The notes beneath the pieces are model-generated. The model ran no database searches. It worked only from the letters and a program-made list of their open reading frames with translations, and had not been told where the DNA came from. Below are positions 2,319 to 48,986 of a stretch of 61,061 nucleotides of DNA, one piece after another. The position numbers were made by a program, and so were the translations under genes. The first letter of the stretch is position 1, and every line of letters begins with the position of its first letter. The DNA is taken from positions 1 to 61,061 of the forward strand of contig JAFYUH010000137.1 in the NCBI GenBank assembly GCA_017549605.1, in the 5' to 3' direction. The stretch comes from Bacteroidales bacterium (GTDB taxonomy: Bacteria > Bacteroidota > Bacteroidia > Bacteroidales > F082).

Positions 2319-2380
2319 AAATTCAAAATCTCAGAATCTCAGAACTTCAGAACTTTTGAGTTTTTGAATTTTTGAGATTC
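2319..2380. repeat. TCAGAA[TC]C word hairpin between convergent thpR and acyltransferase; overlaps the acyltransferase 3' end
   Basis: 'aaattcaaaatctcagaatctcagaacttcagaacttttgagtttttgaatttttgagattc'. Confidence 0.8.
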
Positions 2381-3560
2381 TATTATTAAGCCAATTTCTA
2401 ACAGGTTCGTCATATAGTTTCAAACAGATGTATGCTAATGTGATATTCGTTGCCATGACGAGCAGTACCATCTGCCATGTTTCGCCGAGAGTGTATAACT
2501 CATTATCGATGAGCCATGAGTAGAAGAGATACATCACTGGATAATGTACTATATATAAAGGATAGGAGATGTCTCCTAAGAACTTGCATAACTTAGTGGT
2601 GAAGCCGTTTGTGATGTTTGCTGCTGCGCCGAACCATATTATCGCTGGAAAGACCAATATGATACACGATAATTCATAAATGCCGTTAAGACTGACGCTG
2701 CCCGTCTTCGTGATATAAGGCATAGAGAAAAGAACGAACATCACGATTACTGAAAGCCAAAAAATAGTTTGGTCGCTTAGCTTAGACCCCGTACTCTGAC
2801 TTAGTGTCTCGGTGTCTCGGCGTCTCGGCGTCTTATTAAAATTCCTCGACATTAGCATTCCGAGGGTGAATGGGAATAGCATCCTCAATAATCCTCCGAA
2901 GAAATTGACAGCGTCTAAGGTCCAGCCGATGCCTATCATATCGTATGTGGAGATGTCGAAGACGACGAAGCTTGTCCATAATAATCCAGTCATCACGACT
3001 AAGAATGCCAATCCTTTGTTGGATAGTTTTCTTATAAACAAAGCGTACAATATATTACCGATATATTCAAAGAAAAGCGACCAGCTCGGTCCGTTGAGAG
3101 GATACATCTCCCCATTGCCGCGTACATCGTAAGACGCTCCTGGATAAGCAGGGATGAGAAACATGGCAAGGAAAAACGCTACAAGAATCCAGTGAAATGG
3201 CATCTGTGTGCCGTCCCATCTTACTCCGCCTTGAAGGAGATATGTCGCCAGTCCGATGACCGCGCCCATCACCACCATAGGCTGCAATCTGACAAGACGA
3301 CGCTTGAAGAAGCTCCAGACGTTGACCGTTGACACTGACTGTTGACACAGACTTGGTGACTTCCATCTGTCATCATAAGCATAGCTGATGACGAATCCCG
3401 ACAGCATGAAGAAGAAGTCGACGCCGAGATGTCCGTGGTTGAAAGTCTCTATCATAGTGCCGCCAGCGAAGGCAAAACCTTCAAAGACGTGATACCATAA
3501 AACCATCAGAGCCGCTACACCGCGCAATCCGTCGAGTAATAAGTAATGCTGCTTCTCCAT
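2331..3560 (-). CDS. Acyltransferase family 3 integral membrane protein
   Basis: 409 aa, multi-pass hydrophobic, with the acyltransferase_3-type N-terminus 'LDGLRGVAALMVLWYHV'. It carries two in-frame word-repeat blocks, and its last codons plus stop lie in the TCAGAATC hairpin. Confidence 0.75.
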   Translation of the reverse strand: MEKQHYLLLDGLRGVAALMVLWYHVFEGFAFAGGTMIETFNHGHLGVDFFFMLSGFVISYAYDDRWKSPSLCQQSVSTVNVWSFFKRRLVRLQPMVVMGAVIGLATYLLQGGVRWDGTQMPFHWILVAFFLAMFLIPAYPGASYDVRGNGEMYPLNGPSWSLFFEYIGNILYALFIRKLSNKGLAFLVVMTGLLWTSFVVFDISTYDMIGIGWTLDAVNFFGGLLRMLFPFTLGMLMSRNFNKTPRRRDTETLSQSTGSKLSDQTIFWLSVIVMFVLFSMPYITKTGSVSLNGIYELSCIILVFPAIIWFGAAANITNGFTTKLCKFLGDISYPLYIVHYPVMYLFYSWLIDNELYTLGETWQMVLLVMATNITLAYICLKLYDEPVRNWLNNRISKIQKLKSSEVLRF

Positions 3561-3574
3561 AAAATTTTATTGTT

Positions 3575-3634
3575 AGAAATTCAAAATCTCAGAACCTCAA
3601 AAGTTTTTTTCTGAGATTCTGAGATTCTGAATTT
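3575..3634 (-). terminator. Hairpin of TCAGAA[TC]C words between S8 paralog A stop and the acyltransferase start
   Basis: 'agaaattcaaaatctcagaacctcaaaag ttttttt ctgagattctgagattctgaattt'. The arms are about 22 nt with 2-3 mismatches. Confidence 0.5.
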
Positions 3635-6600
3635 TTAATAAACAACTTTCACTGTCTTTACACATTCTTTATTTATCAAGCGAACGATATATGTGCCATT
3701 GTCGAAGCAACTCATATCTATTCTATAGTTGTCTTCTGAGACCTCGTTGCTATAGACGATGCGTCCCATTATGTCGATAATCTGAGCAGTGCCGATGGCA
3801 TTGATGATAAGTTCGTTGCCTGATTGATATACGAAATTGTTATTACAGTTTTCGTCAGATAATTTGTCATCTTTTGTAAATCTTACAACAAAACGATTGC
3901 GGATGTCTTGTGATGAAGCTGTGAATGTGTAGTCGTTCAGAAGCATATCGGTCTTTTCACCTGTGATATTGTCGACGAGAGTGATTGTCTCGAACTCGCC
4001 TTCGCTCTCGATGTGAAGTGTGTAGTTGCCCATTTCTTTTGCTTCGAAGTCGACATTGACTTCCTTGGCGTCTTCGTTACAGTTGTAGATTCCGTAATGC
4101 TTGTCGTTGCTTGTGACATAGATGTTAGCGATTGACTTATTGAAGTTATTCAATTTGTTGAAGCCCTCTTGACCTTCGTAGTTCATACATATTATCAGGT
4201 TGTCTTTGCCGCTATTGCTTGAAGCTATGATGTTGATAGAACGTACTGAGTTGTCGCTTCTTTGTTTTGCTACATTATATGTTAATGTAGGCTTGGTGTG
4301 GATGGCTTTTACGAAGAAACCGTCGCCGGCTTTGATAGTGCCGGATGTTGCATATTCATAACCGCCGTCAGCCTTTACGACAGCGTATCCGTCTGCTATA
4401 TCTTCTTTTTGAAGATTGTCCCAATCCATATCGAATGAGAAAGGATTGCCAAGGAGATGGAAGTTGGCGAGGTCCTTGCCTGTTGCGTAAGACAATGTGT
4501 ATTCGTGTGTCTTCTCGTTGTTGAGGATGCCTTTGAATACGGCCTGTGTCTCGCTTTCATAAGATGCCAAATAGCCTTTGCCTTGTTGGAATGTTGTCTT
4601 GAATTGTCCGCCTTTGTGGTTGAGCCATTCGAGTTCGTTGTTGCCTTCATATTTGTATAAGTCGTAGTCTGATGACTCAGGGATGAAGTCTTCTATATTG
4701 GCGTTTTTCACAGGAGATGAGATGAACTGCCATCCGTTGATGTTTTCGATGCTCCATTCGTCAGGGTTGATGATGTTCATTATGAATGTCGCTGCGACAT
4801 CATCGCTGCTTTGGAATACCTGAGCGCCGTCGTTGATGATGAGTCCGTCTGTATTGGCGTTGATGAGATCATTGTTGACAGTGAGTCTGACGCCTTCGTT
4901 AAGTGTAAGCGAACCGTTGTTGATTGTCATTGAATTTACTTCAACCTCTCCGCTTTCTATTGTAGCGTTGGCGTTGATGAGGATAAGGAAATCGTTAGCT
5001 GTAGGCACTTGTTTCTTGCTCCAGTTTTCTGCGTCATTCCAGAGACCGTCTTGTACGAAGGTGTTAGGGTTCTTATAGATCTTTTCAGACCATTCTATTC
5101 TTGATTCTTTGCTGCCGTCACCAGAGATGGCCACTTCGTCAAGACCTGTGCAGAAACCATATCCCGCAACATTTACGAATGCGATGTGGAATTTCTTGCC
5201 GATAAAGTCGCTTAAGTTGATTTCTACCTTTGTCCATTCAGAAACATTGGTTTTGTTGCTTGACCATACCTCTTTCCATCCGTCGTTATGAGCGGTGTTG
5301 CTTACCATGACTTTCAATGTGTTGACGTCAGTACCCCATGCTGGTGTGATATAATGGAATGACAGACTTATGCTGTTTCCGTCATATTGAGTGTAATCCA
5401 TAGGATCGGTTACCAGATATGTCAAATATGTAGGACTGTTGATATAAGACTTGATGAATGCTGCCTTGTTTCCCATAAAAGGAGTAAATATTGTCGGATT
5501 ATTTACTTGACCGGCGGAGAAGCTTTCCTCAATGACCCAGTTATATTTGCCGTTTTCGTTGTAATAGTACCAGTTTGGATTATTCGCATCATAAAGGGTG
5601 CTTGTAGATAAGCTTTCGAAGCCTTCTTCGTAGATTTTGCCTTGTTGTAAGTATAAGTTAGCTACACCATATTGATAAGCGCCGTCTTGCAATGTGTTCC
5701 AGTTGCTGTCGGTATATGTTTCGCCGTTTATGTTGGTAGCTATTTGTGTCTCTTCGCCAGATGTTTCGTTTTTTCTATAGATATTAGAACCTTTGCTGTT
5801 GTTGCCGTTGCTCCAGCTTATTTCTACATCGTTGCCGTTTACGTTTGCAGCCACATTGCTAGGAGCAGGTGTGCTTGAGTTGTCTTCTGTCTGAACGCGT
5901 AATATTTGAGAATATTCTGATTCTAAGTCTCCGCGTTTTGATGTCATGATGTAACTGTATAAAGTGCTATATTCCAATCCTTCGTCTATGTATGAAGTAC
6001 TTTCTGTATTAGCGAGGAATATCTTGTTGCGATAGATGTTGTAGCTTGTGGCGTTGTTGGTTTCATCCCATGTAAGTTTGATGGAATTGCCTGCAACCTG
6101 AGCGCTGATGCTTGGAGGAAGGAGCTCGTTGGAGATGTTTGCTACAATGTCGAAAGTACGTTTATGGCTTCCATTTGTCGCATTGACAGTGAAAGTGACC
6201 TTGTGATTGTCTGGAACTAATTTGTCGATAGTGATGACGAATTTAGCGGCTGCTGTTGCGTTGGCAGCCATTACGCCCATACTTTCGTTTCCGTCGACGA
6301 TAGTGACGTATTTGTCGTTTGTTGTTATAGTGACATTTGTATTTCCTGATGTTGAGCCTTGACCGTTATTGATTAATGTAAGTTCTAAGTTAAGATTTGT
6401 TCCAGGGATGAAATTGTTAGTGAAAGAATAAACGTTGAGGTAAGGATCGCTGGTGTTGAAATCGACGGCTTGTACGGCAGCGAGGGCGTCGATACAGCCA
6501 GAGCCAGTGTTGTTGTTTTTCTTGTCTGAAAGCTTTACTGCTGTTGTCTCGATTATTCTGCATAAGTCAGATGGTGTGAGTTCAGGGTTTTTCTCGAGCA

Positions 6601-7930
6601 TGAGAGCCATGACGCCCGCGACGCAAGGAGCGGCCATAGAGGTTCCGGCTTTGATTGCATATCCGTCGTTGCTCTCGTTGCTGAGTGACTTGACGCTTAC
6701 GCCAGGAGCGCAGATGTCAGGACGGATGAGACCTATTCCAGGGTTGTATGAATAATCGTTGTAGGATGTGTATTTCCATGTTGAAGGTCCGCGTGATGAT
6801 AATGCGGCTACTGTATTGTCATAATCTACTGCACCGACGCTGATGACGCTGGTTGTGCCGCCAGCGTTGCCTTGTTGGTCAGGGTGAATCCATGGCGGAG
6901 GGCAGTTGCCAGGTGTGCGTACGTTGTTAGGAACAGGATATGATGAAAGTTCGTTTCCGCTGTTTCCGGCTGCTACAGAAGTGACGACGCCTGCTTCTAA
7001 CACATTGCTGAATACTGTACGGAATGTCGCGCTTAAGTCGGCTGATGGATACCATCCCAATGACATGCTGATGATGTCAGCGCCGTTGTCTACAGCGAAT
7101 TCTATAGCGGAAATGATTTGTTCTGTTGTAGCGTTGATGTCTGGGTCGCTGACTTTAAGACACATAAGTGTTGCGTCTGGAGCCATGCCTGTTGCGAGGC
7201 CTGAGGTTCCGTCGCCGCAGATAGTGCCGGCGCAGTGTGTGCCGTGACCTTTGTTATCTAATGTTGATTGTCCAGGAGCGATGAAGTTATATCCGTGATG
7301 TGGGTATTGTGTGCCGCCATCCCAGAGGTGGTCTTTAAGGTCGACGTGGTTGTAGTTGACACCGCTGTCGATGATGGCTACCAAAACGCCTTTGCCTGTA
7401 TAACCTAAATCCCATACCTTGTCGGCATTGACATGTGTGACGTTTTCTGTGAGATTGCTATCTTCGCCTCTCAATGATTCGTTTTCGTCTTTATCGTCGT
7501 AAATGACAGATAACTCGCTGTTGTGGCTGATGCTTGCGATGTCAGGATGTGATGATAATTGGTATACGACATCGCGTTTTGCCTTGCAACTGACGCTGTT
7601 GATGATCCAGTGGCTTGTGATGTCGGCGACGCTTTCGCTTCTTTCTTCAGCCTTGATGATAGACATTATATCTTCTTGAGATTGCTTTGAGAATTTCTTC
7701 AACTCGTTGATGACTATCTCGCGACGCACTTCTTTGCTGTCGCTCTTGCAATATAATGACGATAAATTTTCTGTCGGCATCTGTGTTTTTAGACTGATGT
7801 TAATGCTGATGTAATCGTCATTCTTTTGGTTTAAGATTTTCTGTAATTCAGGGTCAATTACGTTGTTTTGCGCGTTTAACATAAAGATGCACAAAAACAA
7901 ATTAGCTACAAGTACAAATATTTTCTTCAT
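3635..7930 (-). CDS. Subtilisin-like S8 serine peptidase, multidomain, T9SS C-terminal sorting domain (paralog A)
   Basis: The ORF-track start at 7939 is TTG; the first ATG is at 7930 (MKKIFVLV..., signal peptide). Triad motifs are 'AIIDSGV', 'HGTHCAG' and 'GTSMAAP', with oxyanion 'AAGNSG'. Other parts are an I9-like propeptide, FN3 units, a cleaved-adhesin/choice-of-anchor-J-like module, and a C-terminal beta-sandwich tail '...IIDIMGRIVYSNE...GTYIVRLINKE...VKVVY'. Confidence 0.88.
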   Translation of the reverse strand: MKKIFVLVANLFLCIFMLNAQNNVIDPELQKILNQKNDDYISINISLKTQMPTENLSSLYCKSDSKEVRREIVINELKKFSKQSQEDIMSIIKAEERSESVADITSHWIINSVSCKAKRDVVYQLSSHPDIASISHNSELSVIYDDKDENESLRGEDSNLTENVTHVNADKVWDLGYTGKGVLVAIIDSGVNYNHVDLKDHLWDGGTQYPHHGYNFIAPGQSTLDNKGHGTHCAGTICGDGTSGLATGMAPDATLMCLKVSDPDINATTEQIISAIEFAVDNGADIISMSLGWYPSADLSATFRTVFSNVLEAGVVTSVAAGNSGNELSSYPVPNNVRTPGNCPPPWIHPDQQGNAGGTTSVISVGAVDYDNTVAALSSRGPSTWKYTSYNDYSYNPGIGLIRPDICAPGVSVKSLSNESNDGYAIKAGTSMAAPCVAGVMALMLEKNPELTPSDLCRIIETTAVKLSDKKNNNTGSGCIDALAAVQAVDFNTSDPYLNVYSFTNNFIPGTNLNLELTLINNGQGSTSGNTNVTITTNDKYVTIVDGNESMGVMAANATAAAKFVITIDKLVPDNHKVTFTVNATNGSHKRTFDIVANISNELLPPSISAQVAGNSIKLTWDETNNATSYNIYRNKIFLANTESTSYIDEGLEYSTLYSYIMTSKRGDLESEYSQILRVQTEDNSSTPAPSNVAANVNGNDVEISWSNGNNSKGSNIYRKNETSGEETQIATNINGETYTDSNWNTLQDGAYQYGVANLYLQQGKIYEEGFESLSTSTLYDANNPNWYYYNENGKYNWVIEESFSAGQVNNPTIFTPFMGNKAAFIKSYINSPTYLTYLVTDPMDYTQYDGNSISLSFHYITPAWGTDVNTLKVMVSNTAHNDGWKEVWSSNKTNVSEWTKVEINLSDFIGKKFHIAFVNVAGYGFCTGLDEVAISGDGSKESRIEWSEKIYKNPNTFVQDGLWNDAENWSKKQVPTANDFLILINANATIESGEVEVNSMTINNGSLTLNEGVRLTVNNDLINANTDGLIINDGAQVFQSSDDVAATFIMNIINPDEWSIENINGWQFISSPVKNANIEDFIPESSDYDLYKYEGNNELEWLNHKGGQFKTTFQQGKGYLASYESETQAVFKGILNNEKTHEYTLSYATGKDLANFHLLGNPFSFDMDWDNLQKEDIADGYAVVKADGGYEYATSGTIKAGDGFFVKAIHTKPTLTYNVAKQRSDNSVRSINIIASSNSGKDNLIICMNYEGQEGFNKLNNFNKSIANIYVTSNDKHYGIYNCNEDAKEVNVDFEAKEMGNYTLHIESEGEFETITLVDNITGEKTDMLLNDYTFTASSQDIRNRFVVRFTKDDKLSDENCNNNFVYQSGNELIINAIGTAQIIDIMGRIVYSNEVSEDNYRIDMSCFDNGTYIVRLINKECVKTVKVVY

Positions 7931-7984
7931 AAGAATCAATGAGATTTAATTGGATGCAAATATAAGAATAATTTGGTGTTTGGT

Positions 7985-8014
7985 GAAAAAAAAGAGATGC
8001 CCAAAGGCATCTCT
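7985..8014 (-). terminator. Canonical rho-independent terminator downstream of S8 paralog B
   Basis: On the minus strand: 'agagatgcc tttg ggcatctct' followed by T8. The stem is a perfect 9 bp. Confidence 0.75.
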
Positions 8015-8042: not shown

Positions 8043-11000
8043 TTATAATATTACTATTTTTTGTGACCTTACTGTATTCTCGTTAATGTTACGTATTACG
8101 TAAGTTGTCTTGTTGAACTTGCTTACATTGACCCTGTTGTCTTCTCCAACGATGTCAGTGGTGTAAACAACTCTACCCATCATATCAATGATTTGAATTC
8201 TGCCTTCAGCCTTGACGATAAGTTCGTCGCCGCTTTGATATACAAACTGACCGTTGTCTGTTGTCTGTTGTCTGTTGTCCACCTTTACGACAAATCGGTT
8301 GTGGGTGTCATTGCTTGTAGCTGTGAAACTGTATTCGTTTTCGATGAGCATATTTGTTTCAATGCCTGTGAAGCGGTCGACCAATGTGACAGTTTCAAAC
8401 TCGCCGTTTATGTCTAAACTGATGCTGTAATTGCCCATTTGTGATGCTACGAATGAGAGCTCTACTTCAGTAACGTTTTCGTCTAAGTTGGCGATGCCGT
8501 AACGTCTGCCGTTATTGGCAACGAATACTGTAGCAATTCCTTCATTGAAGTTTTGCAACTTATCAAAACCTTCTGATTGTCCTGCGAAGTTGATGATTAC
8601 GTTGTCTTTACCAGCATTGCCAGAAGCGATGACATTTATGCTGTTGAATTGTCTGCCGCTTCTTGTTATCTCTTTTTTATGATCGTAAGAGAATGTTGGT
8701 TCTGCTGTAATGGCTTTCACGAAGAATCCGTCACCTGTTGCTATTGTAGTATCTGCAGGCGCATAGATGTAAGCTCCGTTAGTGCCTATTATAGCATAAC
8801 CTGTTGTCAATCCTTCTACTGTAGCTTTTCTCATATCCATATTGAATGGGAATGGGTTTCCGAGAAGGTGGAAGTTGGCGAGAGGTTTTTCTTCATTGTA
8901 GGATATTTCTGTGAAATTGAAATGATCTTTGCTGTAGAGAGAACCTGTCAGTGAGGCTGTAGATTCTGTTTCGTATGAAGCGAGGTAACCACGTCCGTTT
9001 ACGAAATCTTTTTCAAAGTCGGCGTCTATATTGTTGCCTTTTTTATGGTTGTTCCATTTTGTGTCCTCATATTTGTATAAGTCGTATGATCTGGCGGCTT
9101 CGTTGCCTGTAAAGTTCATAACGCTGGAGGTGTTGAATGGAGAAGCTATGAATTGCCAGCCGTCTTTGTTGCTACCCGACCATGATGTCGGATTTACAAT
9201 ATTCATATTGAATGTTGCAAATACGTTCTCGCTGCTTTGGAACAATTGAGCGCCGTCATTGATGATGAGTGATGCAGCGTCTGTGTTTGTCATTGTGCCG
9301 TTTACAGTGAGACGGACACCGCCATCAATTGTCATAGAACCGCTGTTGATGCTTACAGATTCTACAATGATATCACCGCTCGTTATTGTCACATCACCAT
9401 CGATGATGACATCATCTGTTGCTGTTGGGATAGAGCCTTTGCTCCAGTTGTTTGCATCGCTCCATAAACCGATGCCGGTGAATATATTGATAGAAGGATT
9501 TACGGTGACAGTGAATGAGTGAGGGTAAGTTGTTGTTTCTGTATGAGTTGAAATTGATTTTACATTGTAAATAGTGATGTCGTCAACAGCCAAGGCAGCA
9601 TTGTCACCGCAGTCGAAATGTCTGATGGCAACCCAAATGTTTTGACCCTCATAATCTACCAACATTGAAGATTTCAGAGTCATTTTCAAAGAGTTCGAAT
9701 TTTTAGCAAGAGTCCAGGCATCTACTTGTTTGAAAGAATTTACATCGGTATTACTTGTAGTTGATACGAAAACACCAAATTTTTCCACTGCATATTTGGT
9801 TTGATTTGCCATAGAACATACATGAAATTCAAATGTAGTACCATCTGATGGTATGATCTGTTCTGGCATTACTAACCAACGGTCTGGTGTAAGAGTTTTA
9901 TTGCCTTTATTGCAAAAAGACTCGCTGAATACGAAACCGCCAGTAGAATATGATTTATTATAATCATGACTGCTTTGTGTGCTTGAATGATACCAGTCGT
10001 GGTCATCTGCAGTTATAGTAGTGCAGCCTTGTAAATCATTGTCGAATGTATAGCTTTTATTGGAGACGCTTTCACTTATGACTTCATTTTCTACTATGAT
10101 ATTTATTTCAAAGTCTAAATCGTAGTTAGAAGGAATGTCTTCTGCCAATTTTATGCTAAATGAGACTGTTGTTGTTTCTCCAACTGCAATAGAACCAACA
10201 TTGTATGTGCCGTTAATGATGTTGACATATTCGTTGTCACACACTAAAGTCGCTGTTGTTGCGGCAGGTGTGGCTTTTTCACATTTATTAATTAATGTTG
10301 CAGTCAATGTTGCGTTTCCGTTTACAAGATTATCCAAGTTGAATGATTTTACAATCACACCAGTGAGTTTCTTGTCGGTTGTAGCGCAGGTGTTTTCTGA
10401 TAGTTCAGATTCCCCGACTTCGTTGACGGCTGTTACGTTGAAGCAGTATGTTGTCTCGGCTTCAAGGTTTTCAATGAGATATGTTGTTTCAGTCAGCTCT
10501 ATGTCGAGTGTTTCTGTGCCGCGATAGATATTGTAGCTCAATGCATTTTCAACGGCGTCCCATCTCAAGATTATAGATGATTCACCGTCAGCTGTCGCTG
10601 TCACTACAGGAGTTGCTGGTGCTTTTGGAGCTTCTAATGTTGTAGCGCAGGCGTCTTCAGATTTTTCAGACTCACCGATTTCGTTGACTGCTGTTACGTT
10701 GAAGCAGTATGTCGTTTCGGCTTCAAGGTTTTCTATGATGTATGTTGTTTCAGTCAGCTCTACAGCGAGTGTTTCTGTACCTCGATAGATATTGTAGCTC
10801 AATGCATTTTCAACAGCGTCCCAAGTCAAGACCACTTCTGATTCGCTTGTAGCTTCTGCTGTCGCTACAGGTGCTGTAGGTCTTTCTTTGAATGTTGTAG
10901 CATAAGCTTTTTCTGATTTCTCAGACTCGCCGATTTTGTTGACTGCTGTAATGCTGAAGCAGTATGTTGTCTCGGCTTCAAGATTTTCTACAGTATATGT

Positions 11001-14241: not shown

Positions 14242-17200
14242 TTATTCCTTGACGAAGCGTTTTGTCAAAACTCCATCATTTGTCTTTATCATGATGAAGT
14301 AAACGCCAGCATTAAATTCTGAAACGTCAATTGTTGTGTTTTCTTGGTGACTTGGTGTCTCGGTGACTTGGAGTCTACCATAAACGTCATAAACAACAAC
14401 TTCTTCTATCTCGATTTCTGTATCGATATAAAGTTTGTCGTTTGCAGGATTTGGATAGATACGGAATGATGATGTGTGTTCATCGATTGCGTCGTCAACA
14501 ACAGTGACGGTATATACTTCTGATGGTTCAGATTCTGTTTCGTCATTGAATGCAACTACATAGAATTCAAATGTGATTTCTTCATTTGTTCCTATCACGT
14601 ATGCTGTGCCGTTTGTGTACCCCATGTGGAAATCTTGTGCGTTGTCGGTGTTTACATAAACATCGTAACCTGTTGCGCCTTCAACGGCATCCCATGCCAT
14701 TGTGATTTCGAATTTGTATCCATAACCAGGAACGTCTTGTCTGATAGCTGCTCTTAAGTTTTTAGGAGCTTCGAGTTTTGCAGGTTCTGGATTTTCAGCC
14801 TCGAATGTTGTAGCGCAAGCGTCTTCTGATTTGTCAGATTTACCTTCTTTATTGACTGCAACGACGTTGAAACAATATTGTGTGTTTGCTTCCAAATCGC
14901 TGACGGTGTATGTTGTTGCTGTTACGGCCAACTTAACTGTTTCTTCACCGCTATAGATGTTGTATCTTATTGCGTTTTCAACAGCTTCCCATGTCAATAC
15001 TATTGTTGATTCGCTTGTTGCTTCTGCTGTTACTACAGGTGCTGCCAATGTTGGTACTTCTGGCTCTATTGGTTCATCGCCTGTATCTTCTAATGTTGTA
15101 GCGCAAGCGCTTTCTGACTTGTCAGACTCGCCGAGTTTGTTGACGGCTGTCACGCTGAAGCAGTATTCTGTCTCGGCATTAAGACCGTTTACGGTGTACA
15201 TTGTGCTTGTGAGTTCTGATGCAATCAGTTCAGTGCCTTGATATACATTGTAGCTTGCAGCTTCTTCAACATAATCCCATGCTAAAAATATAGAAGATTC
15301 GTTCACAGCTTCTGCTGTTAAGTTGGTTGGAGTTGCAGCTTCTGTTGGTTCTAATGTTGTTGCACATGCTTCGTCACAGAATCCTGATTCGCCAGAACTA
15401 GTGATGGTTGTGACTGCATAGCAATATTGTGTTTCATAAGCAAGCTTGCTGTCGGTGAAAGAAGGTTCTGTTACAGTAGCGACTTTCTGTCCGTTGCGAT
15501 ATACGTTGTAGCTGTTAGCAGTGTTTACAGCATTCCATTCCAAAGAAATCTTTGAACTGCTTATTGCTGTTGCTGTGAGGTTTTCAACTTTAGGCAATAC
15601 TATTGAGTTGCTTGCTTTCACTGTGAAATAATAAGGGTCATCGTAACTGTAAGTTGAAGTGTGCTGTATATTCATGCTGACATTTGAGAAAGTGATGTCA
15701 TCAATGTTTAAAGCATCATAGTCATATCCATAATATGAGTCTTCCCATTCTTGTGCTGTAAAGAAGTGACGTATAGCGATATATATATCTTGACCTGCGT
15801 ATGCGCTTAAATCAGCAGTGTATTGTGTCCAGGTTGTTTTTTCGCTTATTACCCATTCTTGGATTGTAGTAAAGTCACTTGCAGAAGCATTGCCATTTGT
15901 TGACACAGCAAGTCCGAAATGTTCTTTATATCCAATATTGTTGTTACCTCTTGCATAGAAACTGACTTTACTGTTTCCTGTAATTTTAACTTTTTCAGGA
16001 GAGACGAGATAGTTGTCGATAGGATTGTATACTTGTGCGACACCATTTTGATTTGAAATACTCATAAGGTGACCTTTTCCTGAGAAAGACTCTTTTACAT
16101 TTGTTAGAGTAGTTGCATCGGTGCTGTGTAGCCAAGCCACTTTGGTGAAACTTCCCCCAGCTTTGAAGCTAGTCCAGCCTTCCATATCGTTTTCGAATTC
16201 ATAAACATAACTTGTTGGGTTAGTATATTCTGAATGTGTTTCAAGGAAGAAGTCGAAGCTATAACTTGGTTTAGTTTCAGGTAATTTTGTTTCAATAGTG
16301 AATGTTCCTGTTCCAGTTTCGCCTACGCCTAATGCAGGTATTGTTGTCTCTGCATCAATAAAATCTACATATTTTAAGTCGCCAGTAAGCGTCTTGAGGC
16401 TGAGTGTGATAGGAGAAGTGAATGCTGCTGTTCCATTGTTGATCACAGTGACTTTTATGTCGTTTGTTGCATTAGTTTCTACCACTCCAGGGCTCACAGA
16501 TTGGAAAGCCAAGTTTGGCATTGTTGTGATATTGACAGAGAATGTGTTTTCCCATGAAAAATTGCCGCTTTTTGTTGTGACAGTAAATGTTACAGTGTGA
16601 CCGCTTGGTGTGTCATTAGAGACATTGATGTTGAAGAATAATGATTTAGTGTCGCCAGCTCCGATTCTGCCTGCTGTCTGTGTTGGATTAGCGATTGTTA
16701 CGTATGGGTCGTTTGCCAATGCCAATGTCACTGTTGTGTTTTCATCACTTGGACCATTACCTTCATTTTTTAATGTTATGCCGATAGTATTGCTACCTGT
16801 TGATATTGTTGTTGGAGCAAATGTGTTAAGTTTAACGTAAGGATTGCCAACGACTTCGGTGATGCTGTTTACTGCTGCGAGAGCGTTGACGATACCAGCG
16901 CCGACGGTGTTGTTTTTTGTAGATGGTTTTGAAGTTGCTGTTGTTTCAATAATTTCTGAAATCTGAGCTGGAGTGAGTGTTGAGTTCTTTTCCAACATAA
17001 GGGCTATCACACCAGCAACTATAGGTGTTGCTTGTGATGTTCCGCTTTTCAATTCGTATATCTCATTGTTGTTATATTTTGTAGAACGTATAATATAACC
17101 TGGAGCTGAGATGTCAGGGCGGATGAGACCCATTGACTCTCCGTTGTTGTAAGGATAGTCATTGTAAGAAGTTCCTTCCCATGTTGAAGGACCGCGTGAT

Positions 17201-18360
17201 GACTCGTTGAGGTCATGAGCGCCGACGCAGATGACGCTTGACAAACCGCCTTCGAGTGTCTGGTCAGGGTTTCTCCAAGGAGCAGGGCAAGCTGCTGGGT
17301 AGTCGACATTGTCAGGAGCTCCGTATGAGTCGCCGTCGTTACCTGCTGCTGCACAGACGACAACGCCTGCACTTAACACATTGTCGAAAGCCTTGCGTAT
17401 CTCTTCTTTCTGTGCTGTGGTTAACTGGCTGTTCTTGAAACCTAAAGACATGCTTAAAACGTCAGCACCGTTTTCAACAGCGAACTGGACGCCGCTCAAC
17501 ATTTGAGTTACAGAACCGCCACCAGCACGGTTGATAGTCTTTAATGTCATAAGCAATGCATCTGGAGCGATACCTGTTGTAATCATTGAAGTACCATCGC
17601 CACAGACAATACCAGCGCAGTGTGTGCCATGGCCATAGTCGTCAGTGATGTTACTGTTGTTAGCAACATAGTTCCAACCGTTTACGTATGTATCAGGAGT
17701 ACCATCGTTATTGGTATCTACATATCCTGTCCAGAGATGATCTCTAAGGTCTAAGTGGTTGATGTTGGTGCCAGAGTCCAATACTGCAACGATTACGTTC
17801 TTGCCAGTATAACCTTCTTCCCACCAAACTCTTTGCGCTTCGACAGCTTGGACGTGAGCATCAGGACCGCCAGCTCTTACTGGAGTGGCTGGCTGTGCCT
17901 TGAGGCTTTCCTCCATTTGCTTAGGAGAGATCATCTGGATTTCTTTGTCATAGCCGATGATCTTTACATCAGGATGTGATGAGAGTCTGTAGATTACATC
18001 TTTAGAAGCCTTGCAGCTGATGCTGTTGGCAATCCATAGATTACGGATGTCTGCAACATTGCCGCTTAACTCTTCTGCTTTCAAGATATTCATCACGTCA
18101 GCTTGAACGTTTTCTGAATAAGTCTTGAGTTCGCCGATAACGATCTCTTTCTTTTCAGATTTTGTTTGAGCCTTTCTTGATGCTCGATTGAGTCTGTCAG
18201 AATTGATGTTTGACTTGAAATAAATCTGAATGTCGATCAATTCATCGTTTCTTTGATTTAAGATGTTCTGAAGTTCAGGTTCGATGGCATTGATGTTTTG
18301 AGCAAATGTCAAAGTGCTTAAAACCAATGCTAAAAATAAAATGATGTAATTCTTTTTCAT
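14242..18360 (-). CDS. Subtilisin-like S8 serine peptidase with FN3 repeats and T9SS sorting domain (paralog C)
   Basis: 1372 aa. The N-terminal ~640 aa are very similar to paralog B, and a compared catalytic-domain stretch is about 95% identical at the nucleotide level. The triad is intact. The C-terminal domain reads 'FRIYPNPANDKLYIDTE...GVYFIMIKT...RFVKE'. Confidence 0.88.
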   Translation of the reverse strand: MKKNYIILFLALVLSTLTFAQNINAIEPELQNILNQRNDELIDIQIYFKSNINSDRLNRASRKAQTKSEKKEIVIGELKTYSENVQADVMNILKAEELSGNVADIRNLWIANSISCKASKDVIYRLSSHPDVKIIGYDKEIQMISPKQMEESLKAQPATPVRAGGPDAHVQAVEAQRVWWEEGYTGKNVIVAVLDSGTNINHLDLRDHLWTGYVDTNNDGTPDTYVNGWNYVANNSNITDDYGHGTHCAGIVCGDGTSMITTGIAPDALLMTLKTINRAGGGSVTQMLSGVQFAVENGADVLSMSLGFKNSQLTTAQKEEIRKAFDNVLSAGVVVCAAAGNDGDSYGAPDNVDYPAACPAPWRNPDQTLEGGLSSVICVGAHDLNESSRGPSTWEGTSYNDYPYNNGESMGLIRPDISAPGYIIRSTKYNNNEIYELKSGTSQATPIVAGVIALMLEKNSTLTPAQISEIIETTATSKPSTKNNTVGAGIVNALAAVNSITEVVGNPYVKLNTFAPTTISTGSNTIGITLKNEGNGPSDENTTVTLALANDPYVTIANPTQTAGRIGAGDTKSLFFNINVSNDTPSGHTVTFTVTTKSGNFSWENTFSVNITTMPNLAFQSVSPGVVETNATNDIKVTVINNGTAAFTSPITLSLKTLTGDLKYVDFIDAETTIPALGVGETGTGTFTIETKLPETKPSYSFDFFLETHSEYTNPTSYVYEFENDMEGWTSFKAGGSFTKVAWLHSTDATTLTNVKESFSGKGHLMSISNQNGVAQVYNPIDNYLVSPEKVKITGNSKVSFYARGNNNIGYKEHFGLAVSTNGNASASDFTTIQEWVISEKTTWTQYTADLSAYAGQDIYIAIRHFFTAQEWEDSYYGYDYDALNIDDITFSNVSMNIQHTSTYSYDDPYYFTVKASNSIVLPKVENLTATAISSSKISLEWNAVNTANSYNVYRNGQKVATVTEPSFTDSKLAYETQYCYAVTTITSSGESGFCDEACATTLEPTEAATPTNLTAEAVNESSIFLAWDYVEEAASYNVYQGTELIASELTSTMYTVNGLNAETEYCFSVTAVNKLGESDKSESACATTLEDTGDEPIEPEVPTLAAPVVTAEATSESTIVLTWEAVENAIRYNIYSGEETVKLAVTATTYTVSDLEANTQYCFNVVAVNKEGKSDKSEDACATTFEAENPEPAKLEAPKNLRAAIRQDVPGYGYKFEITMAWDAVEGATGYDVYVNTDNAQDFHMGYTNGTAYVIGTNEEITFEFYVVAFNDETESEPSEVYTVTVVDDAIDEHTSSFRIYPNPANDKLYIDTEIEIEEVVVYDVYGRLQVTETPSHQENTTIDVSEFNAGVYFIMIKTNDGVLTKRFVKE

Positions 18361-18391
18361 TGTTATGAAATATTAAAATGTATCTTTTAAA

Positions 18392-18474
18392 AGCTGTTGG
18401 CTATTGGCTGTTAGTTAAAAGTCAACAGACAACTTTCAACCTTTTCCGTTGTCCGTTGTCTGTTGTCCGTTGTC
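18392..18474. repeat. GTTGTC[CT] heptamer run x4 facing GTCAACAGACAAC, plus CTGTTGG/CTATTGG words
   Basis: 'agctgttggctattggctgttagttaaaagtcaacagacaactttcaaccttttccgttgtccgttgtctgttgtccgttgtc'. It lies between the leuS stop and the paralog C start. Confidence 0.8.
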
Positions 18475-18479
18475 TATTA

Positions 18480-21439: not shown

Positions 21440-21441
21440 TT

Positions 21442-21532: not shown

Positions 21533-23554
21533 TCAAAGTTCTTTAACAAATCTCTTTACAATATTTCCGTTTGCAGTATTTATCTTAACGAAATAAACTC
21601 CGCTATTCAGATTAGAAATATCTATTGATATCATTTCTTGGTGACTTGGTGACTCGGTGACTTGGTGTCTTCCGTAAATATCATAAACTATCACTTCCTC
21701 GATTTCGCTTTCAGTCTTGATGTATAATCTGTCTTTAACCGGATTTGGATATATGCAGAAGTCTTTGTCGTTTTCTGTCAATGATGTACCGTTCTGTAAT
21801 GTGAATGTATGTCTCCAGCTAGGATGTCTTGAGAAATTGCTGATGCTGATATCATCGATGCATAAGATGAAGATGTCGGTACTGTTGAAGTGACGTATTG
21901 CTAACCAGATGTTTTGACCTACGTATTCGCTGAGGTCGACGGAGAAATATGTCCATTCTTCACCGAGACGATTGTCGGATGTCAGCGTCCATTCTTCTAT
22001 GGTGGTGAAGTCGTCGGCGGAGGTGCTGCTTTTTGTTGAAACGGCTACTCCGAAGTGTTCGCCTGGGACGGTCTTGTCTTGCATCGCTGCCCAGAACCCG
22101 AATGTCGTTTCTTCCTTGACATGTATCATAAAAGGAGAGACGATGTAGTCGTTAGGCATAAGTTCCGACAATATGATATTGCAGAACGACTCGCTCATGA
22201 GGTGTCCTTTGCCTGAGTGCGATGGTATCATTGTGACGAAATGGCCGTCTGATTCAGATGTGTGATACCATAAATGATCGTCGTTGTTAGCGTTTATGGT
22301 AGTCCAGCCTTCGAAGTCATTGTTGAAACTATAACTGATGTCGATGTTTTCTTCGAATGTCTCGTTGGCATAGATGTCGATGTTGAATGTCGCGATATGT
22401 CCTTCAGGCATAGAAGCATCGGTGGTGAAAGAGAATGAGTGTGTGACTTTCTCATTGCAAGCCATCGGCTCTAACAGATATTCGCCTTGTGTTATTGTGA
22501 CGAATTCATCGTCTGTCGACAAAATCGCTTTTGCCTGATATGATGATTCTTTCAAGCCATTATTGACAAATGTGACATCGAGATTCATCTCTTTGCCTGC
22601 AGCGAAGTCTTCGTGAGAGATGGCTTCAACGACTATGTTTTCCTGTGGGTTGTTGCCTTTTAATGAGAACTCGTTGTTCCATTTCATCGGCTGCATCACT
22701 CCTGTCAGCTCGACATCATCGACAGCGAGGAAGTATTGGTCGAAGCAATCGAAATGGCGTAATGCCATCCACACTTCCTGTCCTTCATATTCGCTTAAGT
22801 CGACGGTGTATTGATACCATGTTCCTTGGTCTCTGCTGCTTTTGGCTGTCAATGTCCATTCTTTTATTGTGGTGAAGTCATCGGCGGAGGTGTTGCCTGT
22901 CGATGATATTGCAAGACCGAAATGTTCTGCTGGATATTCGCGATCTTGAGCGCATGCCCAGAAACTGAAGGTTGCGTCTTTGCCTAATTTGAACTTCTCA
23001 GGTGTGACGAGATAGTTGTCAGGATATAAGATATCGAAGGTGTTGTCGTACGATTGAGAGAACATACAGTACATACTTTCGCGGCCGTGGCCTACTCCCA
23101 ATCTTTTTCCCGACTCGATCCAGTTGAATCCGTCGCCGTCAGCATCGATGGTTGTCTATCCTTGGATGCCGTCTTCGAAGTCGTAATAAAGATATGACTC
23201 TATGCTGCTGTCTTCAAGAACAGATTCTATGCTGAAGCTGATGTCGCTGTCGTGTGGTAACAGCTCGTTTGCTGTGATGACGAAGACAACTTCCTGTGTC
23301 GCATTAGGAGCCAATGGTTTGCAGATGGCTTCAGCATTGACGATGGTGATATATTTGCTGTCGCATTTCAATGTGACATGAGTGTCGTTTTCTGTCGCGA
23401 CCTCGCCATCGTTTATGAGTGTGACCTTTAGTTCAATATTCTTGCCCGGTGCTAAATTAGCATTCTCGCATGAATGAAAAGATATCTTAGGAAGCTGAGC
23501 GAAACCCAACTGTAAGAAAAGAGAGAATAAAAGTGTAAGTAATGTTTTTTTCAT
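21533..23554 (-). pseudogene. T9SS-sorted protein with two cleaved-adhesin/choice-of-anchor-J-like modules, interrupted by one in-frame TAG
   Basis: ORFs 23156..23554 (signal peptide 'MKKTLLTLLFSLFLQLGFAQ') and 21533..23101 are in the same frame (23158-23101=57). They are separated only by TAG at 23156..23158. The read-through is '...FEDGIQG*TTIDADGDGFNW...', and the second module of the same protein has 'FEGWTTINAN', so the stop replaces a conserved Trp. Confidence 0.8.
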
Positions 23555-23638: not shown

Positions 23639-25375
23639 TTATTCTTTAACAAACCTCTTTACAATATTTCCGTTTGCAGTATTTATCTTAACGAAATAAA
23701 CCCCGCTATTCAAATTAGAAATATCTATTGATATCATTTCTTGGTGACTTGGTGTCTCGGTGACTTGGTGTCTTCCGTAAATATCATAAACTATCACTTC
23801 CTCGATTTCGCTTTCAGTCTCGATGTATAATCTGTCTTTAACTGGATTTGGATATATGCTGACATTATTTGTGAACTTGTCTTCTATGCCAGTGATATCT
23901 TTATAGTCTTCTATTTCTTCTAAGGCTAACATTGCGTTGACGCATCCTGATCCTGTCTCGTTGCTTTTTGTCTCAGACAGTTTTGTTGCTGTTGTCTCGA
24001 GAGCTTCGCATATCTGTGCAGGAGTGAGGTATGGCTTCTTTTGTAACATGAGGCATACTACGCCAGTGACGCATGGTGTTGCCTGTGATGTGCCGTCCAT
24101 GCTGATGTATCCGCTGCTGTTGGTGTTGCTGCAAGATATGATTCCGACGCCAGGGGCGCATACGTCAGGACGTATGAGGCCTATCTCTCTTCCAGGTAGA
24201 TAAGGATAGTCTTCGTATGATGATGTCTGCCATGTGAAAGGTCCTCTTGATGAGAAATCGGCGACAACGTTATAATAGTTGACCGCGCTGACCGCGATGC
24301 ATGCTGAGAGTCCGCCAGGGTTTGCTTGTTGGTCAGGGTGGAGCCATGGAGGAGGACAGCCGCCTGGTACTCTAACGCTGTTAGGCACAGGGAATGTGAG
24401 GTTGAGCATGCCGTCGTTGCCTACTGCTGTCATGATGGCGACATTAGCTTCGAGGGCGTTTTCGTATGTCTGACGTAATGCTTCTCTTGTTGACATTGAG
24501 GCGTTAGGGAATCCTAATGACATATTCAATACGTCGGCGCCATGTTCTATAGCGAACTCGATTCCGGAGCATACGGTGTTGGCGTTTCCGCCGCCAGCGT
24601 CGTCCATAACTTTGATGCACATTACAGTTGCGTCAGGAGCTATTCCTGTCTGTGTTCCAGAGGTGCCGTCGCCGCAGATGATGCCAGCGCAGTGAGTGCC
24701 GTGGTTGAAGCCGTCGTGAACGTCATGGCTGTTCTCGAAAGTGTTGTAGCCGTGGTTAGGATATTCCTCGCCGCCGTCCCAAAGGTTTTTCTCCAAGTCT
24801 TTGTGGAAGTTGACGCCCGTGTCTATCACGCCGACGAGAACGCCTTTGCCAGTGTAACCTTCGTTCCATGCTTTATTGGCATTCACGTGCTTGATGTTTT
24901 GTGTCATGCCTCTTTGAGCCTCGACTTCTCTCGCTTTTTCATTCCATAAGAGAAACTGTGTCTCGTTGTAACCTATTATCTTGATATCATAATGTTCTGA
25001 CAACAAATAGATGTAGTCTTTGCTTGCAGTACATGTTATCATATTTGAAAGCCAGTGAGCTGTGATGTCTTTGACGTCGCCGCTTGCTTCGCCGGCTTTT
25101 AACAAAGACAAGATGTCTTTCTGTGATTGCTCAGAGAAATTTTTGAGTTCACTTACAACAACTTGACGTTGTGCCTTGGCGTCTTCTGTACTTTGTATGT
25201 TTTTTCTTAAATGGCTTATGTTAGCTTCTGATTTAAGAATGATGTTGACGCTGATCATGTCGTTGCTTTTTGAGTCAAGAACATTTTGAAGTTCAGGCTC
25301 GATGACGTTGTAGTTCTGCGCAAAGCCTATCTGGCATGCAAGTAATGATAGTAATAATAATAGGTGTCTTCTCAT
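23639..25375 (-). CDS. Subtilisin-like S8 serine peptidase with T9SS sorting domain (paralog E, minimal architecture)
   Basis: 578 aa. It has a signal peptide, an I9-like propeptide, triad motifs 'VGVIDTGV', 'HGTHCAG' and 'GTSQATP', and then directly the C-terminal domain 'SIYPNPVKDRLYIETE...GVYFVKINT...RFVKE'. Confidence 0.88.
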   Translation of the reverse strand: MRRHLLLLLSLLACQIGFAQNYNVIEPELQNVLDSKSNDMISVNIILKSEANISHLRKNIQSTEDAKAQRQVVVSELKNFSEQSQKDILSLLKAGEASGDVKDITAHWLSNMITCTASKDYIYLLSEHYDIKIIGYNETQFLLWNEKAREVEAQRGMTQNIKHVNANKAWNEGYTGKGVLVGVIDTGVNFHKDLEKNLWDGGEEYPNHGYNTFENSHDVHDGFNHGTHCAGIICGDGTSGTQTGIAPDATVMCIKVMDDAGGGNANTVCSGIEFAIEHGADVLNMSLGFPNASMSTREALRQTYENALEANVAIMTAVGNDGMLNLTFPVPNSVRVPGGCPPPWLHPDQQANPGGLSACIAVSAVNYYNVVADFSSRGPFTWQTSSYEDYPYLPGREIGLIRPDVCAPGVGIISCSNTNSSGYISMDGTSQATPCVTGVVCLMLQKKPYLTPAQICEALETTATKLSETKSNETGSGCVNAMLALEEIEDYKDITGIEDKFTNNVSIYPNPVKDRLYIETESEIEEVIVYDIYGRHQVTETPSHQEMISIDISNLNSGVYFVKINTANGNIVKRFVKE

Positions 25376-29486: not shown

Positions 29487-29511
29487 AAAGAGTTAGGAAT
29501 TAGGAGTTGAT

Positions 29512-31998: not shown

Positions 31999-32004
31999 AT
32001 TGAT

Positions 32005-36211: not shown

Positions 36212-36214
36212 TGT

Positions 36215-37301: not shown

Positions 37302-38741
37302 ATGAAAAGAAGCAGAAAATTATTGGCAGTGGTATCGATATTATTGATGTCATTTGCATTGCAAGCTCAAGACAGTATTCAGAATAATGATAACGGAAAG
37401 AAGAAAGAGAAGGTTTATAACGAGAAGGGCGAGCTTATCAAAAAAGGCTGGAACTTCGGTCCTCTTCCTGTCGTTGGTTTCAATTCTGACCTCGGTTTCC
37501 AATATGGTGCCTGCGTCGACATCTTCAACTACGGCGACGGTTCTCGCTATCCAAAATTCGATTATAAAATGAACCTCGAGGCTTCAGCCTACACAAAAGG
37601 TTCTCTCAACTTACGTTTCTATGGTGATTTCTATAACCTTATGCCAAACTCTCGTCTCTTCGTTGACGCTGGTTATTTCACCGACAAACGTTTTGAATTC
37701 TACGGCTTCAACGGATTTGCTTCGCCTTATTATGATGACATTTACGTTTTAGGTCAACAGACAACAGACAACGGTCAACAGTTGATTGAAAATTTTGATC
37801 CTAATTTCAACAGCGTGTTCTACAGAATGGATCGTAAACAATTCAGATTCAACTCATGTTTGCGCAATAAATTCGGTTTCGGAGAGCATTTCTATTATGG
37901 CGTAGGTCTCAGTTATTTCAACTATAACATGGGAAGAATCAATATTCACAACGAAGAATATCTTTATGACGAACAAATTACATTGTTTGAATTATATCGC
38001 GAAAGCGGTCTAATCAGAGCTAACGAAGCTGACGGTGGTAATGTCACTCAATTGAAACTTGCTTTCATCTACGATTCCAAAAACCACGACAGCGACCCAA
38101 CCAAAGGTGCTTACTTTGAAGCAACAGTGACAGCAGCTCCTGATTTTATCGACCGTGAAGGTTACAATCACATGACTTTCAATGCTGTATGGCAACATTA
38201 TATTCCAATCGTAAAGGAAAACCTTACATTCGCTTATCGTCTCGTTACTCAAAATGTTATCGCTGGCGACATCCCTTATTACGCTATGTTTAACTCAAAT
38301 ATGTTGTTCTATAAAAAGATGTCTACCGACGCTATGGGCGGTGCAAACTCAGTACGTGGCATCAACAGAAACAGAGTCATCGGCGCTGGTTACGCTTGGC
38401 TTAACGCAGAGCTCCGCTGGAAAGTGGCTGGTTTCCAATTCATCAACCAAAACTGGAACGTCGCTCTTAACCCATTCTTCGATGCAGGTATGGTGACACA
38501 AAGTTATCGCCTTGAAGAACAAGAAAAGGCTTGGTCAGAAATAGAAAAACAATATGACATTATAGGTAACAATAACCTCATCATCGACAGCTACACTAAG
38601 GGCATTCACACTTCTGCTGGTTGCGGCTTGAAACTCATCATGAATAAGAATTTCATCATCTCTGCTGAAGCAGCAAAGGCTCTCGACGCAAGAGACGGCG
38701 ACAACTTGAAGGTTTATATAGGATTTAATTACCTCTTCTAA
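37302..38741 (+). CDS. Outer-membrane beta-barrel protein (Omp85/surface-antigen-like)
   Basis: 479 aa with a signal peptide, an alternating beta-strand pattern and a C-terminal '...YIGFNYLF' aromatic terminus. The family assignment is tentative. Confidence 0.55.
   Translation: MKRSRKLLAVVSILLMSFALQAQDSIQNNDNGKKKEKVYNEKGELIKKGWNFGPLPVVGFNSDLGFQYGACVDIFNYGDGSRYPKFDYKMNLEASAYTKGSLNLRFYGDFYNLMPNSRLFVDAGYFTDKRFEFYGFNGFASPYYDDIYVLGQQTTDNGQQLIENFDPNFNSVFYRMDRKQFRFNSCLRNKFGFGEHFYYGVGLSYFNYNMGRINIHNEEYLYDEQITLFELYRESGLIRANEADGGNVTQLKLAFIYDSKNHDSDPTKGAYFEATVTAAPDFIDREGYNHMTFNAVWQHYIPIVKENLTFAYRLVTQNVIAGDIPYYAMFNSNMLFYKKMSTDAMGGANSVRGINRNRVIGAGYAWLNAELRWKVAGFQFINQNWNVALNPFFDAGMVTQSYRLEEQEKAWSEIEKQYDIIGNNNLIIDSYTKGIHTSAGCGLKLIMNKNFIISAEAAKALDARDGDNLKVYIGFNYLF
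37753..37781 (+). repeat. CAACAGA/CAACGGT heptamer words inside the OMP CDS
   Basis: 'gtcaacagacaacagacaacggtcaacag' encodes 'GQQTTDNGQQ'. Confidence 0.85.
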
Positions 38742-48946: not shown

Positions 48947-48986
48947 GGACAAAGTCTGTTGTCTGTTGACTGTTGTCCGTTGACTT
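48947..48986. repeat. GTTGTC/GTTGAC heptamer words after CDS 48227..48946
   Basis: 'ggacaaagtctgttgtctgttgactgttgtccgttgactt'. Confidence 0.75.

Follow-up and report, generated by a model that had tools for sequence, protein, structure and literature searches.

Is a short tandem repeat inside a secreted protease gene of a gut bacterium a switch for secretion, or is it sequence that the gene tolerates? The question is raised by gene B, an S8 peptidase gene in a contig of 61,061 nt (JAFYUH010000137.1; this whole stretch is called the window here) from an uncultured Bacteroidales bacterium of ruminant and horse guts, known through metagenome-assembled genomes (MAGs) that resemble Ca. Limimorpha. 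The gene carries an array of 7-nt units directly before the sequence that encodes its C-terminal sorting domain (CTD) for the type IX secretion system (T9SS). An initial annotation of the sequence had proposed that repeat DNA replaced or entered the linker at this point, and that gain or loss of one unit could turn secretion or anchoring on and off. We consider it probable, if clearly short of certain, that the array is a coding microsatellite functioning as a spacer and homogenised by slippage, templated repair and conversion between paralogues, and that frameshifts at it are rare.

Tandem Repeats Finder placed the array of gene B at 8253-8279 (period 7, 3.9 copies, 100% matches, unit GTTGTCT). 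The coding strand reads GTG GAC AAC AGA CAA CAG ACA ACA GAC AAC GGT CAG TTT, or by units GGACAAC (AGACAAC)x3 GGTCAG. The array is in frame, with codons 1959-1971 encoding V-DNRQQTTDNGQ-F in the context ..VKV-DNRQQTTDNGQ-FVYQSG.., and the residues that it encodes (1960-1970) lie directly N-terminal to the sorting domain. The C-terminal order of the protein is a conserved module of ~480 aa, then the linker, then the CTD. A match to TIGR04183 (T9SS type A) covers residues 1973-2036 with 25.9 bits, above the cut-off of 23; Pfam PF18962 scored 24 bits on the CTD, under its cut-off of 27. With T9SS type A cargo defined by a C-terminal match to either model, gene B belongs to this class through TIGR04183, and NCBI names its homologues T9SS type A sorting domain proteins. 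The initial annotation had described an in-frame heptanucleotide repeat (GGACAAC followed by three AGACAAC units, peptide NRQQTTDNG) before a T9SS sorting domain, and an unrelated linker in the neighbouring paralogue A; sequence, translation and domain match agree with this description.

In an AlphaFold2 model of the last 200 residues of gene B, built from a 22-sequence alignment with a mean predicted local distance difference test (pLDDT) score of 87, the sole segment with pLDDT <50 was QQTTDN (residues 126-131 of the 200). It lies between a strand at 116-124 (NRFVVKVDN) and one at 135-138, the latter being the first strand of the CTD, which is modelled as a seven-strand beta domain (135-198). 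According to the model, the repeat encodes an inter-domain spacer of ~11 residues that is predicted to be disordered. In Porphyromonas gingivalis cargo, the linker before a T9SS type A CTD is cleaved by the PorU sortase, and by analogy with such cargo the spacer of gene B is the putative region of sorting-domain cleavage. Inspection of the linker peptide found no Bacteroidetes O-glycosylation motif, D-[ST]-[AILVMT].

A homology search with the last 600 aa of gene B returned 147 homologues. All of them come from uncultured Bacteroidales and none exceeds 65% identity; their N-terminal architectures vary while the C-terminal module is common to them. Linker DNA was obtained for 80 loci of species-representative genomes and 38 metagenome loci, the MAGs being labelled Bacteroidales bacterium, Ca. 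Limimorpha or Lentimicrobiaceae. Among the 101 homologous linkers, ~47 proved to be heptamer-periodic (period-7 match >=0.5, compared with a background of 0.15-0.35), and these represent at least 17 different MAG assemblies. Many homologues have NGQQTTDN[GS][QH] at the linker and others have ANGQEPTANSQ, AVSDQQSAVSDN or AQGSQLEAQSQ, each of these peptides being the translation of another heptamer unit (AGACAAC, AGCCAAC, AGCAGTC, GGCTCAA). More distant members have unrelated acidic linkers, and about half of the family is without an array. A single MAG can hold several paralogues whose arrays differ, and homologues that share near-homogeneous arrays are only 45-75% identical in protein. From these comparisons the array is old in the protein family, with no recent entry into paralogue B. 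The proposal that the repeat had replaced or entered the linker is not borne out by the spread of heptamer linkers across the family, of which paralogue A is a member without the repeat.

The periodicity extends well beyond what the encoded peptide needs. At the 22 loci that encode N.QQ.TDN, the periodic codon was used in 136 of 148 cases (92%), compared with ~52% expected, and the second Gln was CAG in 21 of the 22 against a background of 14%. For gene B itself, given its peptide and its own codon usage, the probability of a fully periodic encoding is ~0.005. Since the periodicity exceeds the needs of the peptide and the peptides vary, it is mainly the periodicity of the DNA that is conserved, not the peptide; at one locus (L037), the peptide NRQQTTDNDN was kept with non-periodic codons. 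Unit identity was 0.71-1.0 within arrays and 0.39-0.73 between same-index units of different array types, and the higher identity within arrays points to concerted evolution or whole-array replacement.

Arrays of this kind are abundant in the genome. A strict scan of the window (>=3 units, >=85% matches, with Markov-shuffled sequence as the control) found 21 period-7 segments against 0.3 in shuffles and 9 period-8 segments against 0; for periods 5, 6, 9, 10 and 11 there were 0-1, against 0-1.8 in shuffles. About 20 of the ~26 arrays lie in non-coding DNA, which makes up 11% of the window, a ~30-fold enrichment. In 487 kb of related loci we counted 201 period-7 and 42 period-8 arrays, with 1-17 each for periods 5, 6, 9 and 10, and the unit families there number in the dozens. 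The excess of 5-11-nt repeats with dominant 7-mers that characterises long simple sequence repeats was thus observed both in the window and in the related loci. The idea that few unit words imply one binding factor was rejected, given the dozens of unit families.

Most intergenic regions 3' of genes in the window contain a pair of arrays. Intergenic arrays are mostly paired, with two reverse-complement arrays just 3' of a gene forming long hairpins (z-scores of -3.9 to -8.2) whose stems reach ~40 bp and are often followed by a T or A run. These look like a lineage-specific class of terminator-like hairpins made of tandem units. We found no published description of such hairpins, and Rfam gave 0 matches at gathering score across the whole window. 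The folding excess is absent at the coding arrays (z -0.27 in gene B and -0.93 in a further S8 gene, paralogue C). As the terminator of gene B is not built from an array, its coding array is without an inverted partner.

For strain data on gene B the analysis relied solely on look-ups of the exact protein and on cluster lists; a metagenome scan for its strains yielded no relative closer than 69%. The exact protein is present on 7 metagenome contigs. Its 90% cluster comprises 18 members, which bear the names MAG Bacteroidaceae or Bacteroidales bacterium; 15 of them are listed and 3 are not, the listed alleles lying on ~32 contigs. Twelve listed members have 2037 aa and one has 2038 aa, and the other two are fragments of 907 and 266 aa. 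DNRQQTTDNGQ or DNRQQTTDNRQ is found in 14 of the 15, and the 266-aa fragment ends short of the linker. The 13 full-length alleles and the 907-aa fragment all have an 11-residue linker and an in-frame sorting domain, and the strain comparison suggested in the initial annotation found no change in unit number among them. Neither a frameshift nor a change in array length was seen among the 15 listed of the 18 members, with the limit that the window's own cluster was not among the homology search results and a frameshifted copy of gene B in a separate cluster could be missed. In one allele (L131), the last partial unit is AGACAG in place of GGTCAG (GGT -> AGA), two changes towards the unit consensus that leave the length unchanged and could have arisen when a transient misalignment was followed by templated repair.

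Between these strains, intergenic arrays of the gene B unit family show gains or losses of whole units, such as +AACAGCC or +CAACGGA. Slippage is therefore active in the lineage, and the constant array of gene B would accordingly reflect selection for the reading frame. Array types are also exchanged between close alleles. The P0045 cluster holds both AQGSQLEAQSQ and DNGQQTTDNGQ, with the difference limited to a ~20-aa patch, and other paralogues carry the alternative form of this patch unchanged. Array types are mixed in the P0029 and P0096 clusters as well, and ANGQEPTANSQ is among the types mixed in clusters of >=90% identity. On these alignments, the swaps are best explained by short-patch conversion between paralogues.

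One-unit deletions occur naturally at sister arrays. The locus L004 (protein P0101) is ~98% identical to L005-L007 (P0043) and has, at the homologous linker of another species, exactly one 7-nt unit fewer. The unit is missing from the array GGACAAC AGTCAAC AGACAAC TGACAAC; the frame is broken, with a stop 21 codons on, and the CTD-coding DNA downstream is intact. The second instance is a gene of the window for an Omp85-family outer-membrane protein (NF047779), which carries a same-word array and occurs in three allele classes: with the array (ON), with the array minus one unit, and with an equal-length non-repeat sequence. Two alleles from the species of gene B (L132 and L133), found in two samples and several single-nucleotide polymorphisms apart, each lack exactly one CAACAGA unit, which leaves open reading frames (ORFs) of 158 aa and 319 aa; such alleles account for roughly 2 of ~29 array-bearing contigs. 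No further array frameshifts were seen in 120 homologue clusters and ~60 cluster members, and no length variants among the ~47 array-bearing representative loci. Frameshifted linkers thus make up ~1% in the family, with L004 the only one among roughly 100 array-bearing homologue sequences.

For gene B, the loss of one unit is predicted to give a 1989-aa product ending ..QQTTVSLYIKAATNLSSRLKAEFKSLI and the gain of one a 1985-aa product ending ..DNRQRSVCISKRRRTYRQG. Both would lack the sorting domain, as the initial annotation had foreseen, while a change of +/-3 units would keep the frame. The two alternative frames at the array stop within 15-23 codons. Signs of programmed ribosomal frameshifting were looked for at the array and not found: it has no slippery motif X XXY YYZ, and its folding is no better than that of shuffles (z -0.27).

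The 23-nt string CAACAGACAACAGACAACGGTCA has exactly two occurrences in the window, at 8248-8270(-) in gene B and 37755-37777(+) in the Omp85-family gene, and arrays of the matching word lie in intergenic DNA at 18442-18475 and 48953-48977; both resemblances had been pointed out before. The first of the intergenic arrays shows whole-unit (7-nt) indels between strains. The 23-nt identity is not compelling as proof of copying from one source, as the non-repeat Omp85-family allele of equal length in other strains, MNYATDNGRNTLQ, carries ACAGATAACGGT at the position of the array. The AACGGT end, which gene B has in common with the Omp85-family gene, may be the ancestral state in each of them.

A further coding array lies in paralogue C (ORF 14242..18360, minus strand), where the octamer array CACCAAGT at 14343-14376, within the T9SS sorting domain, encodes the CTD loop between ..YDVYGR and IDVS... 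Alleles from strains >=90% identical (L126, L127 and L129) have different arrays at this one site, the alternatives being a CAACRGA heptamer (QRTTDNGQQTT), the octamer AATCTCAG (IQNLRTSESQNLRIS) and a CAACAGC heptamer (QQLIANSQQPTA), and the arrays in their 3' untranslated regions differ too. The CACCAAGT octamer was also observed in two further T9SS cargo genes, at 21636-21671 (ORF 21533..23101, minus strand) and 23740-23774 (ORF 23639..25375, minus strand), in each case ~100 nt before the stop and in the CTD loop of paralogue C ([HL]QVTE[ST]PSHQE). The paralogues of one genome therefore share an array type.

The anatomy of the locus, a DNA periodicity beyond the needs of the peptide, concerted unit types, swapped alleles and natural -1-unit alleles at sister arrays, together with a linker predicted to be disordered, would fit a genome in which 7- and 8-nt arrays arise very frequently, mostly as arms of 3' intergenic hairpins. 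The few arrays that survive within genes would do so at sites that tolerate any polar sequence, with a total length that keeps the frame. That of gene B would be tolerated for two reasons: any polar sequence is acceptable at its site, and a polar peptide results from the CAACAGA orientation alone, whereas the array read in reverse would encode VVCCLLS. DNA-level processes, and not selection on the peptide, would keep the linker periodic: slipped misalignment with templated repair, short-patch conversion between paralogues, and occasional gain or loss of a unit. As the unit is 7 nt, each single-unit slip would be a frameshift and would leave a protein of ~1985-1989 aa without the sorting domain. 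T9SS cargo without its CTD is not exported, and the truncated product of gene B would likewise stay behind. Slips at gene B would be rare and apparently removed by selection, and adaptive switching there is probably absent.

Several observations weigh against this reading. Homogeneous arrays in homologues that are only 45-75% identical need an active homogenising force, and ON/OFF cycling of units would also yield homogeneity. Every coding array observed belongs to a cell-envelope or secreted protein, a distribution typical of contingency loci, and the same -1-unit Omp85-family allele on two haplotypes hints at recurrent events and not a rare accident; consensus assemblies, moreover, cannot reveal minority length variants within a population. 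The same observations lend themselves to a contingency locus, in which reversible 7-nt slips would detach the protease from its CTD and make its secretion or display phase-variable, with OFF/ON cycling keeping the array homogeneous. This account draws on a unit that is not a multiple of three and that, gained or lost once, truncates the protein just before the CTD, on the exact -7-nt allele of L004 at the homologous linker with its downstream CTD DNA intact, on the Omp85-family alleles whose same-word array is short by exactly 7 nt, found in two samples and haplotypes, and on near-perfect arrays across divergent homologues with coding arrays confined to envelope proteins; intragenic heptanucleotide tracts have also been proposed to mediate phase variation in H. 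influenzae (PMC2651432). Yet no length variant appeared among the listed gene B alleles on ~32 contigs or the ~47 array-bearing representative loci, and only 1 among roughly 100 array-bearing homologues. The array has only ~4 units, often imperfect in homologues, compared with 8-38 in H. influenzae (PMC2651432), and L131 displays a length-neutral homogenising change directly, so OFF intermediates are not required. The on/off switch of the initial annotation is therefore mechanistically possible, and -1-unit alleles do exist at sister arrays, but at gene B, with its ~4 units, we regard switching as unlikely. We are equally sceptical of a broader version, in which 7- and 8-nt coding repeats at the CTD boundary or loop and in outer-membrane proteins would be family-wide contingency sites, reversible slips uncoupling cargo from secretion and arrays guiding the exchange of linkers and CTDs.

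It is less likely still that the nucleic acid of the array acts in cis, either as a homology patch for the exchange of linker/CTD cassettes or as an unstructured CA-rich site in RNA bound by a protein. The patch exchanged between near-identical alleles does have the array at its centre, paralogue C has different 7-/8-nt arrays in one CTD loop across strains, 23 identical nt are found in two unrelated genes, codon choice is constrained beyond the peptide's needs, and the array RNA is unstructured. However, the swapped patches reach ~10 codons upstream and end at the array, so the array would travel inside conversion tracts and does not clearly mark their limits; the many diverse unit families argue against one sequence-specific binder, and about half of the family manages without an array. 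We give even less credence to NGQQTTDN as a functional protein motif, such as a site of recognition or cleavage by the T9SS sortase, with the DNA periodicity as a by-product. Many homologues do share the peptide, NRQQTTDNDN persists at L037 although its codons are non-periodic, and the position is where CTD cleavage would be expected from knowledge of T9SS. Its codons, however, are periodic far beyond what it needs, some homologues have ANGQEPTANSQ, AVSDQQSAVSDN or AQGSQLEAQSQ from other heptamer units and others have unrelated acidic linkers, and the same peptide stands in the unrelated Omp85-family protein, where one allele lacks it. A chance repeat or an assembly artefact, for which only the small copy number speaks, is practically out of the question: it is refuted by the 21 period-7 arrays against 0.3 in shuffles and by identical DNA in independent assemblies, and the assembly k-mers of 141 are longer than the array.

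The tetranucleotide tracts of Haemophilus influenzae are simple sequence repeat (SSR) contingency loci, which change by slipped-strand mispairing. Like such loci, the array of gene B has a unit that is not a multiple of three, lies in the ORF of a secreted or envelope protein and shifts the frame when it changes by one unit, and natural one-unit variants occur at its sister arrays (L004, L132/L133). Unlike them, it lies near the 3' end, where the slipped product would be almost full-length and only the export signal lost; it is kept at one position across a protein family and many species, and no length polymorphism was seen at gene B among the listed alleles. The intragenic heptanucleotide tracts of H. 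influenzae include (AATTTTG)14 in hmw1A and (AACAACC)8-13 in an HI1369 homologue (PMC2651432), and with 8-38 units the tracts of that species exceed the ~4 units of gene B. Compared with SSR contingency loci as a class, gene B agrees in its unit and in its place within an ORF, and departs in polymorphism and repeat number.

Cyanobacterial short tandemly repeated repetitive (STRR) sequences are genome-wide heptanucleotide repeats. PMC4679880 describes the long simple sequence repeats that Mrazek et al. reported in 2007, with their heptanucleotide preference, and TAACTGA direct repeats in Beggiatoaceae, Cyanobacteria and some Bacteroidetes. The arrays found here resemble genome-wide heptanucleotide repeats in their lineage-specific 7-nt excess, mostly intergenic position and proposed origin by slippage, and in the occasional tolerated copies at the ends of, or between, protein modules. 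They differ in having many unit families instead of one plus an 8-nt class, in being paired as inverted arrays at the 3' ends of genes and not upstream of start codons, and in having coding copies that are conserved, in frame and at a defined domain boundary. The linker of gene B resembles the PorU-cleaved linker of P. gingivalis as a polar disordered segment directly before a ~70-aa beta-sandwich CTD, and differs from it in that the linkers of the gene B family are encoded by DNA repeats whose periodicity is conserved while the peptide is not. Literature searches turned up no account of such arrays, whether for gut Bacteroidales or for T9SS domains.

If the coding microsatellite reading, a neutral one, is correct, the locus would clearly exemplify, in nature, a bacterial protein linker that owes its sequence to microsatellite dynamics and not to selection on the peptide. 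The pre-CTD linker and the CTD loop of T9SS cargo would be unusually permissive sites that are useful for engineering T9SS fusions, and in annotating MAGs of this clade, genes split at arrays should be taken as real alleles and not necessarily as assembly errors. Were gene B a switch, it would represent SSR-mediated control of export rather than expression in abundant ruminant gut Bacteroidales, and family-wide contingency sites would amount to a system of surface variation through SSRs, in an order that is otherwise known for its invertible promoters. On either reading, the 3' hairpins of tandem 7-/8-nt units in this clade appear to be undescribed and merit separate study, and the clade-wide array phenomenon is of more interest than the locus of gene B alone. 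Coordinates are collected in Table 1.

Table 1. Gene B, its array and related features of the window (positions in the 61,061-nt stretch)
Feature	Position	Strand	Remarks
Gene B, S8 peptidase gene, 2037 aa	8043..14156	-	Peptidase_S8, Cleaved_Adhesin and three fn3 domains
Heptanucleotide array of gene B, with imperfect end units	8248..8281	-	Strict scan; residues 1960-1970
T9SS type A C-terminal sorting domain of gene B	8046..8246	-	Residues 1971-2037, starting FVYQSGDELIV; stop codon 8043-8045
Terminator of gene B	7993..8014	-	Ordinary G+C hairpin with T-run, not array-built
Paralogue A	ORF 3635..7939	-	FTKDDKLSDENCNNN at the position of the array-encoded linker of gene B
Sister array GGTCAAC AGACAAC AGACAAC GGTCAAC	37752..37779	+	Within Omp85-family gene 37302..38741; encodes GQQTTDNGQQ
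Intergenic array GTTGTCY	18442..18475		One arm of a terminator-like hairpin after leuS, z -4.4
Intergenic array GTCTGTT / GTTGACT	48953..48985		Downstream of ORF 48227..48946
Paired-array 3' intergenic hairpins	126-363, 1646-1742, 3561-3634, 18380-18479, 36136-36214		By fold z-scores
Paired-array 3' intergenic hairpins, further	39924-40026, 43810-43895, 50655-50760, 53001-53041		By fold z-scores
Copies of the ~90-nt palindromic element	21425-21520, 29465-29560, 32000-32060, 48015-48100

Some further repeats and irregularities were observed. Within gene B, a 261-nt tandem repeat at 10378-11115 (2.4-2.8 copies, ~80% identity) corresponds to the duplicated fn3 domains and is an ordinary domain duplication. 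Close to the cargo gene with the octamer at 21636-21671, an in-frame TAG stands at 23156-23158 where the paralogues have TGG (..DGIQG*TTIDADGDGFNW..), splitting the gene into a 132-aa signal-peptide ORF (23156..23554, minus strand) and ORF 21533..23101; this TAG marks a nonsense allele or a pseudogene, or else stems from a sequencing error. ORF 2331..3560 (minus strand) contains an octamer array, GTCTCGGC, at 2803-2834, 472 nt before the stop. The final ~15 codons of the same ORF (..NNRISKIQKLKSSEVLRF; 2327-2376) coincide with an array hairpin of the AGAATCTC type, so the frame runs into the 3' hairpin.

The 329-aa 'ORF' at 36215-37204 is probably no gene, being packed with TCCTAAC/AACTCCT heptamer arrays, and it also holds a 69-nt repeat that contains elements of the GACGCCACAGGAGTGACGTCTCTAC type. 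A palindromic element of ~90 nt (TGTAGAGACGCGTCAATGATG ... CATCATTGACACGTCT), similar to repetitive extragenic palindromic (REP) sequences or miniature inverted-repeat transposable elements (MITEs), occurs in intergenic DNA, often beside heptamer arrays. In the homologues P0073, P0076 and P0090, the CTD loops have peptides like DAASHVRT..GRDAASHV, which, judged by their sequence, look like in-frame insertions of an element related to this palindrome.

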